64,000 bases of DNA, taken from the IMG/VR virus record IMGVR_UViG_3300009509_000003, one strand, 5' to 3'. This DNA is from an uncultured virus (IMG/VR IMGVR_UViG_3300009509_000003) (Duplodnaviria > Heunggongvirae > Uroviricota > Caudoviricetes). A program made the position numbers and the translations under genes. Below the pieces are notes generated by a model. It was not told where the DNA came from. It saw only the letters and a program-made list of their open reading frames with translations, and made no database searches. Position 1 is the stretch's first letter. Each line of letters begins with the position of its first letter. Positions 526 through 61,295 of the stretch are shown here, one piece after another.

Positions 526-1521
526 TCAAGAATTTTCGTCGGAATTTTTGTATGGTCCCGTAATTTCAGTCGATCTAGTTCGAGAGGCCCGATACCCGAG
601 TTTTTCGCAGATCGGATCGGAGGATGTCGCGCATCCCGGCGAGCCAGGCTGACACCAGAAGGCGTTGTGCGTATCGAGTCCCTTTACCCGAGCGAGCCCT
701 CTTTCGCAGGCGTGGCGGTCATCGCAAGCGCCGCCGTCGTCTTCGCAGCGACCTCCCCAGGTGATTACCCGAGCCGTGGTGATTATCAGAGGCTCTCCGT
801 CGGTCAGCCGCTTGGCTATGTTCGCTGTTCGCTGGCACCTCTTGAGCAGATGGCGATCCCACATATTTCCAGGAAGACGAAAACTCTCTGGACGCTCACA
901 GGACAGCTCCAGTTCCCGTAGCCACATCTGTCGCTTGTTGCGGGCAGGCACAACACCGAGGACAAACCGACTCGCTCTTTTCATCACGGAGAGCATCGTC
1001 TCTCCGCCGTCGTCGCACTCGGTGATCTTGCGAAAAAATCTCCGATTGCAGCTCCGGCTTCGAATGTTGCTCAACACTTGCCATATCCCGATGCAGTCGT
1101 CTTCTGAACCGGCTTGCTCGCTCATACAAATGCGAAATAGCCCAGTCGTAATAGCTTCGTCGGCCTCTTTCTCCGGCACGTTCCACAGTCTCGCGCGCGT
1201 GTCCGCGGGGGCTTCCCAGGTGTAGCGCTCCACACGTCGGGTCTTCCTCTTCGGCGCCGGTGGGGTCCAAACAACCTCCTTGTTGCGCTCCAACTCCGCA
1301 AACATGCGGTCCAGCTCGGCGTTCCTCTTCGCCATCGACTCGGACACAGACACACCGGGAGCCTCCGGAGAAGACAACGTCTGCGGCGACGCCGCTTCGG
1401 CCTCCGTCTCCTCCAGACTCAGGAAAGGGACCACAGACGCTCCGGCTGCGATTGCAATCAACACCGCGCCTGTTACCATCACACCCCTGAGTTTTCTCGA
1501 CACTCCACTCCAAGTAGCCAT
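526..1521 (-). CDS. Membrane-anchored Cys-rich hypothetical protein
   Basis: 331 aa ORF with GGAGG RBS and an N-terminal hydrophobic segment. Confidence 0.7.
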   Translation of the reverse strand: MATWSGVSRKLRGVMVTGAVLIAIAAGASVVPFLSLEETEAEAASPQTLSSPEAPGVSVSESMAKRNAELDRMFAELERNKEVVWTPPAPKRKTRRVERYTWEAPADTRARLWNVPEKEADEAITTGLFRICMSEQAGSEDDCIGIWQVLSNIRSRSCNRRFFRKITECDDGGETMLSVMKRASRFVLGVVPARNKRQMWLRELELSCERPESFRLPGNMWDRHLLKRCQRTANIAKRLTDGEPLIITTARVITWGGRCEDDGGACDDRHACERGLARVKGLDTHNAFWCQPGSPGCATSSDPICEKLGYRASRTRSTEITGPYKNSDENS

Positions 1522-1694
1522 GAGCTACCTCCTCTCCCGCCCGGCACACCGGGATCGAGTTCGCTAGATGTACTGGGATAGGTCGGCGTGCAAGGCGTAA
1601 ATCATGATCGCCCACAATACCACACTCGATGCCGATCTTTCTAGTCGATGAAGTGATTTCATGCGGATCGTACTACCACCTAGCGCGAGAATAG

Positions 1695-15909: not shown

Positions 15910-15982
15910 GGGTCTATGAGCGTAATCGGAAGCGCTCCTGACTTTTAATCAGGCGGTCCGGGTTCGAGTCCCGGTGGACCCA
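15910..15982 (+). tRNA. tRNA-Lys(TTT)
   Basis: cctga ctTTTaa tcagg; GTTCGAGTCC T-arm. Confidence 0.9.
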
Positions 15983-16339: not shown

Positions 16340-16468
16340 GATCCGAATGCTCGATGGGGAGTACATCGTCTGGTAAACGATCGATGCGGGTTCGATTCCC
16401 GTCCGTCGCCCGAAAGGGTGGCGGCCATTGGATGGGGATAAAAACTCTCTGTCATCCCTTGTCGGATC
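16340..16468 (+). ncRNA. Y RNA-like 1 (permuted tRNA-like domain)
   Basis: GATCCGA-ATGC...TACAT...CTTG-TCGGATC terminal stem; anticodon-like arm, T-arm, closed acceptor hairpin. Confidence 0.75.
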
Positions 16469-16472
16469 ACTT

Positions 16473-16546
16473 TCCGGGATCGTCCAAAGGGTTTAGGATG
16501 TCTGGCTTTGACCCAGAAGATGGGGGTTCAAATCCCTCTCCCGGAG
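16473..16546 (+). tRNA. tRNA-Gln(TTG)
   Basis: tctgg ctTTGac ccaga. Confidence 0.9.
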
Positions 16547-16550
16547 CTAA

Positions 16551-16599
16551 CCCGATACCTCAACCGTCAGACCCGGAAGGGAGCAGCGGAGAGGTCGGG
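16551..16599 (+). ncRNA. SRP (4.5S) RNA helix-8-like hairpin
   Basis: CCGTCAGACCC-GGAA-GGGAGCAGCGG resembles GUCAGGUCCGGAAGGAAGCAGC. Confidence 0.7.
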
Positions 16600-16699
16600 G
16601 GCCGCTCTCTGCTGAATTTCGCAATCAGGGAGAGGGGCTGCGCCTCCGAGAGACCAGGAGAGGTCTCGTGGCACGATACGCCCTGCCCGGAGACGCTCT

Positions 16700-16744
16700 G
16701 GGTGCGTAGTGTTAGCGGCTAACACGTCGGTCTCCAAAACCGCG
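16700..16744 (+). pseudogene. 5' half of a tRNA-Trp(CCA) upstream of an HNH gene
   Basis: Acceptor 5' strand, D-arm and cggt ctCCAaa accg; no T-arm. Confidence 0.65.
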
Positions 16745-16778
16745 TTGATTTTCGAGTCCATAATGTTACCATTGACAC

Positions 16779-17225
16779 ATGACTATAAAGTGCACGGAGT
16801 GCGGAGAAGAGAAGCCTCCGGAGGCGTTTTCTTGGAGGAAGAAGAATGTCCGAAGGCATCGACGGTGCAAAGAGTGCCATCGGCGCTACAACCGAGAGCA
16901 CTATCAGACTAATAAAGAGGACTACCGTCCTCGATACGCGAAACGCAAAAAGCGGCATCAGGAGGTATTGAAAGAGTTTATAGGAGGGTGGCTTACCTCT
17001 CACGAGTGCGTAGACTGCGGAGAGACGGACATCCGTGTTCTAGAATTCGATCACAGAGAGAAGAAGAACTTCAACATCGCGCAGGCTGTTCATAAGTGTA
17101 TTGCGTTACGTACCCTCAAAAATGAGATCAGCAAGTGCGAAGTTCGATGCGCGAATTGCCATCGCCGAAAAACGTCTATAGAGCAAGGATGGTGGAAAAG
17201 TAGATACGGGACACGCTCCGGGTAA
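16779..17225 (+). CDS. HNH endonuclease
   Basis: CVDCGE..LEFDH..CANCHRRKT. Confidence 0.85.
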   Translation: MTIKCTECGEEKPPEAFSWRKKNVRRHRRCKECHRRYNREHYQTNKEDYRPRYAKRKKRHQEVLKEFIGGWLTSHECVDCGETDIRVLEFDHREKKNFNIAQAVHKCIALRTLKNEISKCEVRCANCHRRKTSIEQGWWKSRYGTRSG

Positions 17226-17279
17226 GCGGGCTGGTCTCCAAAACCGGCCGTCTGCGAGGTTCAACTCCTCGGTGTCCTG
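17208..17279 (+). tRNA. tRNA-Trp(CCA)
   Basis: ctggt ctCCAaa accgg; overlaps the HNH stop. Confidence 0.8.
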
Positions 17280-17281
17280 CC

Positions 17282-17391
17282 GAGCCGAATGCCACGAGGG
17301 ATTACATAGACTAATTGGTAAAGTCATTTCGCTATCAACGAAACATTCCGGGTTCAAGTCCCGGTGCAATCTCTCAAATATTTGTCGGCTC
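17282..17391 (+). ncRNA. Y RNA-like 2 with an embedded unpermuted cloverleaf (ATC anticodon loop)
   Basis: GAGCCGA-ATGC...TTTG-TCGGCTC stem enclosing D-arm, tttcg ctATCaa cgaaa and T-arm. Confidence 0.75.
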
Positions 17392-17395
17392 TTTC

Positions 17396-17473
17396 CCGGG
17401 CGCGGTCCAGTCTGGAGTGGACGCCTGCCTGTCACGCAGGAGATCGAGGGTTCAAATCCCTTCGCTCGGGCCA
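17396..17473 (+). tRNA. tRNA-Asp(GTC)
   Basis: cctgc ctGTCac gcagg; CCA. Confidence 0.9.
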
Positions 17474-17724: not shown

Positions 17725-17799
17725 CGGGCTGAGGGCTTGATGGTAAGCCGCCTGGTTTGGGACCAGGAGTTTGTGTGGGTTCGACTCCCACCAGCCCGA
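17725..17799 (+). tRNA. tRNA-Pro(TGG)
   Basis: cctgg ttTGGga ccagg. Confidence 0.9.
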
Positions 17800-18143: not shown

Positions 18144-18582
18144 GAAGTGTATGCGGAAGGTTGGCTTAGAAGCAGCCATCCTCTAAGGAGTGACGAGAGG
18201 TAGCCTATTACGGTTGGCGCGACCCAGGCATAGAACAGCCGCCTTCCGCTATTACCACGGGCCAGTATCCTGTGGGAGGATGGATCGGGGAACGGCGGTG
18301 TCACCTCAGGGAGTGGGACAAGCGAGACGACGTGAACAGATCAGTCGGATTTCTTCAAGCTCTCGAAAGAGGGAGGAGTTCCTACCGGCACGGTCTGTAG
18401 CGTTCGATTCGGGCTGGGTACCTAGACGTCATGGTTTGCCCGCATATTACGAGAGGAACTGCGGGTCTGATCCGGGGAGGCCCGAGAACCGGTAGGGTTG
18501 CAACTCTGGATTCGTCCAGTGAACCGGAGATGCCATGACTGGCCCTTGGAGTCTTTGGCGTAACAGCACACCCATACACTTC
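18144..18582 (+). ncRNA. Large ncRNA containing a 23S rRNA L11-binding (H43/H44) mimic
   Basis: GAAGTGTATG/CATACACTTC closing stem; GGTTGGCTTAGAAGCAGCCATCC...GCGTAACAGCACAC. Confidence 0.7.
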
Positions 18583-19779: not shown

Positions 19780-19781
19780 CC

Positions 19782-19850
19782 GGCCGAATGCTTGACGGGA
19801 CTACATTTTTCGTTGGAGAAAAACTCACGTCTCGTCGATCCTTGTCGGCC
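19782..19850 (+). ncRNA. Y RNA-like 4 (minimal)
   Basis: GGCCGA-ATGC...GGGACTACAT...CTTG-TCGGCC. Confidence 0.7.
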
Positions 19851-19854
19851 ATTT

Positions 19855-20079: not shown

Positions 20080-20237
20080 GATCTCGTCAGGAGGTTGGCC
20101 TAGAAGCAGCCATCCTTCAAAGAGTGGCGGTCTAGCAGTACAGACCTCTGAGCTATCCCATTGCGCAAGGGACGGCGATGAAGTCCCCATAACTGTGGAA
20201 TAGGGGGCCTTTGGCGTAATAGCACACTGACGAGATC
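20080..20237 (+). ncRNA. Second 23S rRNA L11-binding-domain mimic
   Basis: GATCTCGTCAG/CTGACGAGATC stem; GGAGGTTGGCCTAGAAGCAGCCATCCTTCAAAGAGT...GCGTAATAGCACAC. Confidence 0.75.
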
Positions 20238-20240
20238 ATC

Positions 20241-20306
20241 GAGGCGAATGCTGATGGGATTACATCGCGAGAGCGTTCCACAAGGTCTCATCGATATTGT
20301 CGCCTC
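20241..20306 (+). ncRNA. Y RNA-like 6 (minimal)
   Basis: GAGGCGA-ATGC...GGGATTACAT...TTG-TCGCCTC. Confidence 0.7.
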
Positions 20307-20311
20307 ACCTT

Positions 20312-20384: not shown

Positions 20385-20492
20385 GGATCGAATGCTTGTG
20401 GGACTACATTGAAAGTTCAACTCTTTCTCGGGCCACTATTACGGCCCGATAGCCTAACTGGTAAAGGCGGGTCTCGCTCCCCTTGTCGATCC
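20385..20492 (+). ncRNA. Y RNA-like 7 (classic YrlA layout)
   Basis: GGATCGA-ATGC stem; T-arm GAAAG-TTCAACT-CTTTC, closed acceptor TCGGGCC/GGCCCGA, D-arm. Confidence 0.85.
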
Positions 20493-20495
20493 TCT

Positions 20496-20920: not shown

Positions 20921-20971
20921 ACTTTCCAGAGTTTGACAGCCATGCCGCACTGTTGGCGGAAGGAGGTAGCC

Positions 20972-22573
20972 ATGGCTAACAAAGGACTATTCCAAAGCAC
21001 GCGGGGCCGGACGGTCCCGAAGACGGACGCAGTAAACGCAGCTGGAGGAGTGGCTTACTCTCTCAGCTCCAAAGCAGCGCTGGCGCGATACGCGGCTACG
21101 GGCTGTCTCTCCAACACGTACTACGTGAAGGCGGAAGACCACCTGAAGCGCGTCATCGATCTCGCAAAGGAGTGCGACTCCGAGTTCATCGCGAAACTGG
21201 CGATCTTTGCCCGCAAAGAGGGCTACATGAAGGACATGCCCGCCGTGCTCATGGCGATCCTCGCATCGCGTGGAGACGACGGCGGAGCAGCTCTGAAAGC
21301 AGCCTTCCCGCAGGTCATCGATAACGGGCGCATGCTCCGGAACTTCGTTCAGGTCATGAGGTCCGGTCAGCTCGGACGGAAGTCAATGGGCACGGGCCCT
21401 CGTAACCTCGTTCGTGGGTTCTTCGAGCGAAACGCGCCTAACTGGCTGTTCAGGCAGCTTTCCGTCGGGCAGGAGCCGTCGGGCTCGGACATCATCAAGA
21501 TGGTCCACCCGAAACCAAAAACCCCAGAACACGACGCGCTGTTCGGCTACATGATCGGGAAGACCAAGCCCGTGAGCGAGAAGTGGGGGCACATCCCGCC
21601 GCTCGTCGATCAGTTCGAGGCGTGGAAGGCGGACAAGAGCCTGCCAGCTCCCCAAGTGGACTTCCGACTGCTCACCGCTCAGCCGCTTGACGGTAAGCAG
21701 TGGGCCTCGATCTTCCGCGCGGGGCAGTGGCACTTCATCCGGATGAACCTCAACACAGCCATCCGACATGGAGCGCTCAAGGCCGATCCTGGTTTGGAGC
21801 AGTTCATCGCAGACACGCTCCGAAACAAGGAGACGATCCAGAAGGCGCGGGTCATGCCGTACCAGCTCTTCGCGGCGTACAAGCACATCACCACGGACGT
21901 TCCTCGGGAGATCGTGGAAGCCCTCCACGATGCCGTCGAAATCTCCGTGGACAACGCGCCTGTCGCCGAAGGAAGGACCCTGGTCATCGTCGACGTGTCG
22001 GGCTCCATGAGTTCGCCAGTCACGGGAGGCGGAGGTCGTACCGCGACGAAGGTTCGGTGTGTGGATGTCGCGGCGCTCTTCTCGGCTGCCATCGTGCGGA
22101 AGAACAAGAGCGCAGCAGTGCTCCCGGTGGACACCTCGGTTCACCTGGACTACAGGCCGGAGCCGCGGAACTCGGTTCTCACGGAGGCCGAGCGTCTCGG
22201 GAAATACTGCGGCGGTGGAACGGCGCTCTCGGCAGCTTTCCGGCACGCCAACCAGCGTCGGCTGAAGGTCGATCACGTGGTCATCATCTCGGACCAGGAG
22301 TCCTGGGCCGATCGGCACTACTCCTTCTACGGTGGAGACGGTACTGCGATGATGCACGAGTGGGAGGAGCTGCGCAGTCGTAACCCGAAGGCGAAGCTCG
22401 TCTGCATCGACGTTCAACCCGGCGTGACACATCAGGCCTTGGAGGGTCGTTCCGAGATCCTCCACGTGTCCGGATGGAATGACTCGGTCTTCAAGGTAAC
22501 GGCGGCCTTCCTCGGTGGCGACACCGGGTCATGGCTTGATGTCATCGAGAACATCGACCTAGCTCTCAACTGA
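20972..22573 (+). CDS. rsr: Ro60/Rsr TROVE-domain RNA-binding protein with C-terminal VWA
   Basis: VNAAGGVAY, TGCLSNTYY, RMNLNT, VDVSGSMS MIDAS; AGGAGG RBS. Confidence 0.93.
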   Translation: MANKGLFQSTRGRTVPKTDAVNAAGGVAYSLSSKAALARYAATGCLSNTYYVKAEDHLKRVIDLAKECDSEFIAKLAIFARKEGYMKDMPAVLMAILASRGDDGGAALKAAFPQVIDNGRMLRNFVQVMRSGQLGRKSMGTGPRNLVRGFFERNAPNWLFRQLSVGQEPSGSDIIKMVHPKPKTPEHDALFGYMIGKTKPVSEKWGHIPPLVDQFEAWKADKSLPAPQVDFRLLTAQPLDGKQWASIFRAGQWHFIRMNLNTAIRHGALKADPGLEQFIADTLRNKETIQKARVMPYQLFAAYKHITTDVPREIVEALHDAVEISVDNAPVAEGRTLVIVDVSGSMSSPVTGGGGRTATKVRCVDVAALFSAAIVRKNKSAAVLPVDTSVHLDYRPEPRNSVLTEAERLGKYCGGGTALSAAFRHANQRRLKVDHVVIISDQESWADRHYSFYGGDGTAMMHEWEELRSRNPKAKLVCIDVQPGVTHQALEGRSEILHVSGWNDSVFKVTAAFLGGDTGSWLDVIENIDLALN

Positions 22574-22771: not shown

Positions 22772-22905
22772 GGGCTGAATGCTTAGTGGGAATACATCGC
22801 ATTCCAAGCGCGTGGTTGTTGGTTCAAGTCCAGCTCTCCCTGTATGGGGAGATAGCTCAACTGGTAGAGCACGTAAACGTCTTCTCACGCCCTTCTTGTC
22901 AGCCC
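22772..22905 (+). ncRNA. Y RNA-like 11 (complete circularly permuted cloverleaf)
   Basis: GGGCTGA-ATGC...CTTG-TCAGCCC; anticodon-like loop, T-arm, TCTCCC/GGGAGA acceptor, D-arm GCTCAACTGGTAGAGC. Confidence 0.85.
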
Positions 22906-22908
22906 TCT

Positions 22909-60063: not shown

Positions 60064-60462
60064 CTACTCTTTGTCGAAGCCTTCGACGTTGCGAGCCTCA
60101 CGATCGCGCTTCCGAGACTCTAGCCAGTGCAGCGCCTCTTCGAGCTTCGTGATGGCGAGGGAGTTTTCCCGGCAGGGGAACTTCTTGTTGAACGTTTGAA
60201 GGGTTCCGAGCACGAACACGATGAGGTCATCGATCTGGCAGCCGTTGACTCCGACTTCTTTGATCGGTCCGCGCTGCCCGATGAACAAGACGGAGCCAGG
60301 ATTCACCACGATGTAGGGAGCCATCAGCTCTTGACCGCCGACACCGCCGAACTCTAGATGCTCCTTCGGCGTGTCCGCGTAAGGATAGGCTCGGTCCCTC
60401 GGATTGACTCCTTCGGGGGCTAAAAGCATAGGGGGATTCTTGACGTTCTCTGACCAACGCAT
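60064..60462 (-). CDS. Tad1/Acb2-family cyclic-nucleotide sponge (anti-defence)
   Basis: QRGPIKE..NG..DDLI..FPCRENSLAITKLEEALHWL..R..DREARNVEG. Confidence 0.75.
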   Translation of the reverse strand: MRWSENVKNPPMLLAPEGVNPRDRAYPYADTPKEHLEFGGVGGQELMAPYIVVNPGSVLFIGQRGPIKEVGVNGCQIDDLIVFVLGTLQTFNKKFPCRENSLAITKLEEALHWLESRKRDREARNVEGFDKE

Positions 60463-60506
60463 GATGCTGTCCTTTCCCGGGTCATTTTGGCCCGCTGAGG
60501 ACGATG

Positions 60507-60848
60507 CTACTGGAGGCTGGGGAAGTTTGCAAGAGCGTCGAAGTAGGGACCGCCCACGACTTGAATGCTCATCTCGGCCCGCGTCTTCACGGGCTCGAAG
60601 TAAATGTCCCGGACTTTGGGAGTCACTGGCGCGATCAGTCCTCCCGTTCGATGCAAATGGCCTCGGGGATGATCTTGCTCCCTCGTGCCGTGATCGTACA
60701 ACCACCGAGGATCGATCTCGAAGTAGTCGGACAGGCGCTGCCAGAACTCGCTCGTCTGCGCCTGGAGGCACCCCCAGTACTCCTCGTGGCCGGTATACAG
60801 CTCTTCCAGCTCTTTGATGATCGCCGCCGGGGCCTTGACTATGAGCAT
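60507..60848 (-). CDS. Hypothetical protein
   Basis: 113 aa ORF. Confidence 0.55.
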   Translation of the reverse strand: MLIVKAPAAIIKELEELYTGHEEYWGCLQAQTSEFWQRLSDYFEIDPRWLYDHGTREQDHPRGHLHRTGGLIAPVTPKVRDIYFEPVKTRAEMSIQVVGGPYFDALANFPSLQ

Positions 60849-60857
60849 CTTCGTCCC

Positions 60858-61295
60858 TTACAGCATGATCTTCGGGTCGGCTGAATCGACCTGATTGAAG
60901 TCCTCGACCGAGGTCACGACGGCGTATCGGAAAACTACCCCCTCCAACGCGATCTCGCTCGACATGGCGTCCGTCCGCCCGACCCGCTGACCTCCCAGCT
61001 CGATGCCTACGCCAAAGGGCAGGTAGTCCGGGTCGCCGATCTGCATACGCGCTCGTCGCCACTTCGTACCCTCCTGGTCGAAGAGGCGCACGTCGACCTC
61101 AGTAGCCTCTCCGATGAGCGAGATGAGCGTTCGCTGCCCGTGCTCGATGGCTCGCCATATCTCAAAGCCTCTCGGTGTCAGCGCCGACACGCAACAGGGG
61201 ACCGTCAGCGGTGTTGATCTGCCGGGCACGTGAAAGTCTACCAAAAAGCGATAGACCCGAAGCCAGTTCTGTTGTCCATCAATTGCCTTTGCCAT
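60858..61295 (-). CDS. Hypothetical protein
   Basis: GGAGGAG RBS. Confidence 0.55.
   Translation of the reverse strand: MAKAIDGQQNWLRVYRFLVDFHVPGRSTPLTVPCCVSALTPRGFEIWRAIEHGQRTLISLIGEATEVDVRLFDQEGTKWRRARMQIGDPDYLPFGVGIELGGQRVGRTDAMSSEIALEGVVFRYAVVTSVEDFNQVDSADPKIML

Follow-up and report, generated by a model that had tools for sequence, protein, structure and literature searches.

The DNA analysed here, from now on referred to as the window, is a 64,000-nt stretch from an uncultured virus with a phage-like G+C content of 0.56-0.60. It contains 40 tRNA genes as identified by ARAGORN, all of them located on the plus strand between positions 15910 and 29145, with five HNH endonuclease genes found among the array. 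Directly downstream of a tRNA-Gln(UUG) gene, a short hairpin that is not itself a tRNA is encoded on the tRNA strand (Table 1). The initial annotation had placed a 49-nt hairpin at this point, and both its sequence and its position hold, the gap to tRNA-Gln being 4 nt, which groups it with the tRNA-adjacent stubs described below. Two ORFs extend over the hairpin (16354-16722, plus strand, and 16567-16761, minus strand); they overlap RNA genes and were not taken as genes. Window DNA could be identified in 20 public runs from 6 studies, comprising sediment, estuary, mangrove and soil metagenomes with no RNA run listed. Contigs covering the hairpin from four runs are identical to the window and thus offer no variation to use. 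No close relative of the window was found among GenBank phages.

Further features of the window were noted in passing. Downstream of the conserved leader lies a degenerate tRNA-Trp copy (about 16700-16770), with an HNH gene (16779-17225) coming next and the intact tRNA-Trp (17208-17281) last. A related viral contig, L369, carries only one tRNA-Trp at this place and lacks the HNH gene. As the leader directly adjoins tRNA-Trp in HNH-free L369, the stretch 16700-17281 of the window has the appearance of an insertion by a homing endonuclease that duplicated part of its target. ARAGORN also reports a tRNA-Asp(ATC) at 17300-17373 on the plus strand, beside a tRNA-Asp(GTC) at 17396-17473, of which L369 has only the GTC one here. 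Outside the array, a 332-aa ORF (60064-61062, minus strand) matches phrog_2428 (E 9e-24) and, at 24.1 bits against a cut-off of 27, falls short of a full match to the Acb2/Tad1 hairpin domain. Its product may sequester nucleotides used in host immune signalling.

Table 1 Positions of the hairpin, its neighbours in the tRNA array and related RNAs in other viral contigs
Feature	Record	Position	Strand	Size	Details
tRNA-Gln(UUG), directly upstream of hairpin	window	16473-16546 (Rfam) or 16547 (ARAGORN)	+		
Spacer CTAA, tRNA-Gln to hairpin	window	16547-16550	+	4 nt	CTGG in L369
Mini SRP RNA hairpin	window	16551-16599	+	49 nt	CCCGATACCTCAACCGTCAGACCCGGAAGGGAGCAGCGGAGAGGTCGGG
Apical core (helix, symmetric loop, GNRA apex)	window	16563-16590	+	28 nt	conserved; model R1 and covariation, 14 copies
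Two more spacer hairpins	window	16600-16674	+		first not conserved in sequence with L369, second shares CTCCGAGAGAC
Conserved leader	window	16675-16703	+		GATACGCCCTGCCCGGAGACGCTCTGGGT; in L369 directly before tRNA-Trp
YrlA-like (Y RNA-like, RF02553) RNAs	window, array	16340-16472, 20385-20495, 22772-22908			
Weaker YrlA-like RNAs	window, array	19781-19854, 20241-20309			
23S H43/H44-like element 1	window	18145-18573	+		LSU rRNA cmscan 27.9 bits (23.0 in smaller search)
23S H43/H44-like element 2	window	20081-20234	+		LSU rRNA cmscan 21.3 bits
Ro60/TROVE gene	window	20933-22573	+		vWA domain E 2.6e-10; phrog_850
Hairpin	L369	7459-7505			4 nt past tRNA-Gln(UUG); CCCACCAAGGACCGCCAGGCCCGAAAGGGAGCAACGGTACCAGTGGG
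Full-length Bacteria_small_SRP	L002 (497-kb viral contig)	1465-1557			among or next to tRNAs
Full-length Bacteria_small_SRP	L005 (372-kb viral contig)	1465-1557			among or next to tRNAs
Full-length Bacteria_small_SRP	L006 (290-kb viral contig)	1462-1557			among or next to tRNAs
SRP-like RNA	L073			83 nt	Rfam 42.1 bits
SRP-like RNA	L070			72 nt	Rfam 40.4 bits
SRP-like RNA	L093			44 nt	Rfam 40.7 bits
SRP-like hairpin	L010			44 nt	in 73-nt gap, tRNA-Glu to tRNA-Arg
Stubs	L062, L108, L068, L117, L105, L029, L109			30-52 nt	no gathering-level match
Stub	L029/L037			30 nt	core 8 nt past tRNA-Gly

Similarity of the hairpin to SRP RNA helix 8

Folding of the 49 nt yields, from the outside inwards, a CCCGA/TCGGG stem, a TA bulge, a CCTC/GAGG stem, an AA/A internal loop, a CCGT/GCGG stem, a CAGA/AGCA internal loop and a CCC-GGAA-GGG apex. 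The folding energy is -21.9 kcal/mol compared with -14.2 +/- 2.7 kcal/mol in shuffled sequences (z -2.9), with 1 of 200 shuffles being as stable. When 201 nt around the hairpin are folded, the identical hairpin is retained and the flanks give no extension of the stem.

Two hallmarks of SRP RNA are present, namely a GNRA tetraloop, here GGAA on a G-C-rich CCC/GGG stem, and a symmetric loop of the form CAGR (5') and AGCA (3'), here CAGA/AGCA, in agreement with the GGAA tetraloop and CAG/AGCA loop originally described. The A/C-rich asymmetric loop of the Ffh M-domain site, also claimed by the initial annotation, is present in reduced form only: in place of the 4-nt A/C-rich 5' strand found in E. 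coli and Pseudomonas, the window has AA on the 5' and A on the 3' side. Helix 5 and the distal region for GTPase activation are missing, with the hairpin closing at 49 nt, and the earlier remark that the distal end is absent is borne out by the sequence and by both folds. The hairpin is a truncated derivative and not a full SRP RNA. Alignment with the E. coli ffs gene itself reproduces the reported change of a U-A to a C-G pair, which affects the third pair of the apex, and additionally reveals a change from CAGG to CAGA in the symmetric loop. The 20-mer containing CAGA can be found at at least 120 loci in cellular genomes and at least 120 metagenomic loci, with carriers including several Pseudomonas species, Methylophaga, Desulfuromonadales and Acidobacteria. 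Judging from these carriers, CAGA is a natural variant of the 5' half of the symmetric loop and not a phage oddity.

At Rfam gathering scores, the 64-kb window gave 36 matches, all of them tRNA and none an SRP family, while a permissive cmscan aligned the hairpin with helix 8 of Archaea_SRP (RF01857, model positions 186-226) at 26.1 bits against a cut-off of 96.5 (E 3.2e-4 when searching 471 nt, E 0.0092 when searching 13.6 kb). The match to Bacteria_small_SRP (RF00169, cut-off 40) scored below that of RF01857 and was suppressed within the SRP clan (CL00003). A further covariance model, R1, was derived from 13 other viral copies, leaving the window out. Run over both strands of the whole 64 kb, it identified 16563-16590 at 36.9 bits, with E 3.3e-7 under a rough calibration of E. 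The runner-up had an E of 3.2, leaving the hairpin as the sole significant match. The bare motif CAGNNNNGGAANNNAGCA is uninformative, with one match in the window at up to one mismatch and 1.18 expected.

The apical 18-mer of the window equals that of Pseudomonas fluorescens, and the apical 26-mer is identical in many cellular SRP RNAs. Over the whole hairpin, at most 35 of 49 positions agree with cellular or metagenomic copies among the matches listed. Since only the apical core is common to cellular SRP RNAs, the outer stems are the phage's own. The exact core 21-mer had no match in viral contigs, and the 49-mer had none among GenBank phages. Searching GenBank phages with viral SRP RNAs of 93 and 83 nt gave short matches inside coding genes. 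One SRP RNA-like match in an entry named "Acinetobacter phage" (L409, GenBank CAKLQF020000006.1, 192429-195473) was rejected; lpxA, ybgF and recA surround it, and the entry looks like a bacterial contig and not a phage.

Conservation in a syntenic relative

Relatives were sought via the Ro60 protein encoded in the array, which led to two loci, L369 and L370. L369 is located on an 82-kb contig with a completeness of 48% according to CheckV, its Ro60 is 74% identical, and its tRNA order is that of the window (Lys-Asn-Lys-Gln-Gln-gap-Trp-Asp). A hairpin is found in the equivalent gap and matches RF00169 at 30.4 bits (E 0.0023). Its apical 26 nt are identical to those of the window at 22 positions. 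The tetraloop is GGAA in the window and GAAA in L369, both conforming to GNRA, and the pair below the symmetric loop is U.G in the window and C.A in L369. In the outer stem, CCCGA/TCGGG of the window corresponds to CCCAC/GTGGG in L369, with two pairs altered on both sides. The asymmetric loop of L369 is displaced, its position not being conserved with the window, and the adjacent spacer hairpin is not alignable between the two.

Selection acting on both the loops and the fold of an RNA would produce such a pattern, as seen from one relative; conservation at the level of the locus refers to a single comparison, that of the window with L369. Together with the covariance-model matches and the apical 26-mer shared with cellular SRP RNAs, the compensatory changes in L369 uphold the initial assignment of the hairpin as an SRP helix-8 look-alike. 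No such hairpin was found in the 21.6-kb locus L370, which encodes a Ro60 with 42% identity. A search via the neighbouring 523-aa protein returned no relatives, and the conserved tRNA-Trp leader led to the contig of L369 only.

SRP-like RNAs in other viral contigs

Nineteen loci in viral contigs matched a strict core pattern, and 14 of these are gathering-level SRP RNAs. Full-length SRP RNAs of 93-96 nt, scoring 57.7-58.7 bits and thus above the Rfam threshold, are present in three large viral contigs (L002, L005 and L006), one of which, L006, is classed as a provirus, so its SRP RNA may be host DNA. Shorter copies, including stubs of 30-52 nt that resemble the window hairpin and lie in tRNA clusters of large viral contigs, form a series down to 30 nt, and the asymmetric loop is absent from 4 of 11 distinct stubs. 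The mini SRP-like hairpin of L105 (221-270) is directly followed by TTTTTT and therefore resembles an intrinsic terminator; no tRNA is located within the 554 nt examined.

A looser core pattern identified 109 loci, 91 of which remained after removal of exact duplicates. A hairpin is formed by 30 of these, while the other 61, mostly coding matches, do not form one. Fourteen matches have a same-strand tRNA within 350 nt, all of them hairpin formers, compared with none of the 61 non-hairpins (Fisher p 1.4e-8), although some of the 14 represent ordinary cellular-type SRP genes beside tRNA-Ser (L083, L112, L127). It should be noted that both patterns demanded GGAA and would miss the GAAA of L369, making the survey an undercount.

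Across an alignment of 14 viral copies, the three helix pairs adjoining the symmetric loop can pair in all 14, using 4, 5 and 4 pair types, respectively. Pair 5-24 is U.G in five copies and C.A in nine. Overall, 90.8% of cells are paired compared with 65.1% in shuffles (0 of 500 shuffles as high), these covariation figures being inflated because most of the 14 rows were picked as hairpin formers. The window and L369 were not picked for hairpin formation.

Further host RNA-like elements in the array

The array also contains two elements resembling the H43/H44 region of 23S rRNA, which we take to be the GTPase-associated centre and uL11 site. Both carry an H43-like box (GGTTGGCYTAGAAGCAGCCATCC) just inside the closing stem and an H44-like box (GGCGTAAYAGCACAC) just before its 3' strand, the two boxes being separated by about 370 nt in the first and about 95 nt in the second element. 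The closing stems are GAAGTGTATG/CATACACTTC and TCGTCAG/CTGACGA, respectively. In viral contigs, the H43 box occurs at 34 loci, 33 of which do not continue as 23S rRNA and 13 of which have a same-strand tRNA within 200 nt. No 23S-like box was found in L369. In L407, the contig of L092 and L010, an H43-like box with one mismatch (17752-17774) is located about 0.4 kb downstream of the 44-nt mini SRP hairpin. Besides the window, L407 was the only one among 10 records searched to contain both SRP-like and 23S-like elements, and an obligate pairing of the two was rejected on this count.

Several YrlA-like RNAs and a Ro60 gene complete the set, and their arrangement is conserved in L369. RF02553 scores are 49.7 and 42.4 bits in the window and 57.1 and 37.7 bits in L369. 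The upstream element at 16340-16472 is YrlA-like and no partial tRNA, sharing a 5' CGAATGCT...GGGA.TACAT, a T-arm and a 3' CTTGTCGG with the other YrlA-like RNAs of the array.

Proposed function and alternative explanations

We interpret the hairpin as a real and selected phage mini SRP RNA, corresponding to helix 8, that would be transcribed and processed with the array and have host Ffh as its partner. We assign a probability of roughly 60% to this reading as a whole. Counting against it are the missing gathering-level Rfam match and the shortened asymmetric loop, which is displaced in L369.

Possible protein partners encoded by the phage were considered. Five viral records that carry SRP-like RNAs were searched, four of them being 91-100% complete, and no M domain of SRP54 was found, while 14 of 14 controls were positive. 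The SRP54 GTPase domain was not found above cut-off in any of the five, one sub-threshold match reaching 14.1 bits. A scan of 19 window ORFs likewise gave nothing resembling Ffh, and two of the L002, L005 and L006 records were searched for Ffh with none found. With no phage-encoded Ffh in these records and ORFs, any protein partner would most likely come from the host. The hairpin probably binds host Ffh. Both internal loops of SRP RNA, the asymmetric one included, contribute to M-domain binding, and helix-8-only fragments of about the size of the hairpin were reportedly enough for the M-domain co-crystal structure.

The hairpin is probably transcribed together with the tRNA array and freed when tRNA-processing enzymes mature the adjacent transcripts, in which case 3' processing of tRNA-Gln would set its 5' side. 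Pre-SRP RNA is named next to pre-tRNA as a substrate of RNase P in a passage of PMC10731613. Once released, the hairpin would engage host Ffh via its intact symmetric loop, the element recognised by the M domain; passages of PMC4737761 give the affinity of the M domain for SRP RNA as picomolar. They also describe an early state in which the receptor NG domain sits on the tetraloop and a later one in which the NG dimer is located at the distal end, the site that triggers GTP hydrolysis. The tetraloop contact is stated to accelerate complex formation at least about 100-fold in the relevant part of PMC4091067. With the GNRA tetraloop kept, the hairpin could still tether FtsY, and with the distal end absent, it could not support the GTP-hydrolysis step. 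Particles of hairpin and Ffh would consequently assemble with FtsY but recycle poorly.

Two consequences for the host can be envisaged. The hairpin may compete with host 4.5S RNA for Ffh, so that targeting of membrane proteins is diverted or throttled; we put this forward tentatively, at somewhat less than even odds. Alternatively, it might act as a supportive stand-in for host 4.5S RNA, a proposal to which the full-length copies of huge phages lend weight but which we regard as doubtful.

Among explanations that dispense with a role in SRP function, a decaying relic is the strongest, yet unlikely. A captured full-length SRP RNA gene would have been whittled down to a hairpin that is now functionless, consistent with the size continuum from 96 to 30 nt in viral contigs and the eroded asymmetric loop of the window. 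Against this, the stems vary in a compensatory manner whereas the loops and the GNRA apex persist, both between the window and L369 and across the 14 copies, and 22 of the 26 apical positions are identical to L369 even though the neighbouring spacer hairpin has diverged beyond alignment.

That the hairpin targets the translation GTPase EF-G instead of Ffh seems improbable to us. An EF-G role of 4.5S RNA is an old and disputed proposal. An EF-G target would gain from the two mimics of the 23S 1068 region in the same array (18145-18573 and 20081-20234) and from the L092 contig, where an SRP-like and a 23S-like element both occur, about 0.4 kb apart. It is weakened by the presence of a 23S-like box in only one of 10 viral records with SRP-like RNAs and by L369, which keeps the SRP hairpin without such a box. 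Binding of 4.5S RNA to EF-G in competition with 23S rRNA is mentioned in a section of a secondary source (PMC6337395), the binding having been reported to occur via a sequence shared with the 1068 region.

We consider it very improbable that the hairpin is a generic stable structure that insulates neighbouring tRNAs, ends transcription between them or signals their processing, and whose SRP likeness is incidental. The tight packing against a tRNA and the additional spacer hairpins downstream would fit such an element, but neither the E of 3.3e-7 obtained with R1 nor the distribution of conservation does, as the unpaired loop letters, needless for mere stability, are the best conserved part. 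An intrinsic terminator was rejected specifically: the bases 3' of the hairpin (GGCCGCTC) contain no T-run, and no terminator-like site was reported there. Least probable of all is a decoy for a host defence system or toxin attacking SRP RNA, which could be modelled on phage tRNAs, believed to make good the loss of tRNAs that host nucleases cleave, and would suit an array that also holds other copies of host RNA domains, but to our knowledge no nuclease targets SRP RNA.

Implications and comparison with known systems

Few non-coding RNAs are universal, and SRP RNA is among them, serving in all cells to direct proteins to membranes. Full-text searches, with most subscription journals outside their coverage, returned no report of a phage-encoded SRP RNA, whole or truncated, and a search for work on truncated SRP RNAs of bacteria in vivo gave nothing usable. 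The sole link to phages that was found is an attachment site inside ffs, reported in PMC12540744, and PMC6582537 concerns host ffs only. A phage-borne SRP RNA cut down to its tip suggests that large phages interfere with or support the membrane-targeting pathway of their host. If the helix-8-only form is indeed selected, the phage would target co-translational delivery of membrane proteins. The hairpin would then represent a natural experiment that parts the tip of SRP RNA, responsible for Ffh binding and FtsY tethering, from the distal end, responsible for GTPase activation.

On a broader and more speculative level, tRNA arrays might serve large phages as expression platforms for miniature protein-binding cores of universal host RNAs that capture or redirect Ffh and FtsY, uL11 and EF-G, or Ro60, with the SRP stub being dominant-negative. 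This extension, which builds on the SRP helix 8, two copies of the 23S GTPase centre and several Y-RNA-like RNAs of the window, we regard as unlikely on balance. The co-occurrence of these elements hints that phages employ RNA-domain mimicry as a strategy, and the non-tRNA spacers of phage tRNA arrays merit annotation.

The closest known system is the bacterial small SRP RNA (4.5S RNA, ffs, RF00169), with which the hairpin shares the GNRA tetraloop on a C-G apex, the CAGR/AGCA loop and the U.G pair below it. However, the bacterial RNA is about 97-114 nt long compared with the 49 nt of the hairpin, which is without helix 5 and the distal end, and the asymmetric loop consists of 4+1 nt in E. coli and Pseudomonas fluorescens but of 2+1 nt in the window. 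Unlike cellular SRP RNAs, the hairpin scores below the gathering threshold, is located in a phage tRNA array and has no accompanying Ffh gene that could be found. The viral SRP RNAs of L002, L005 and L006 have the same core and same-strand tRNAs, whereas the window copy comprises the tip only. Phage YrlA-like RNAs are likewise small structured non-tRNA RNAs of the same array that are kept in L369. They differ in having a phage-borne partner, Ro60, whereas none was found for the SRP hairpin.
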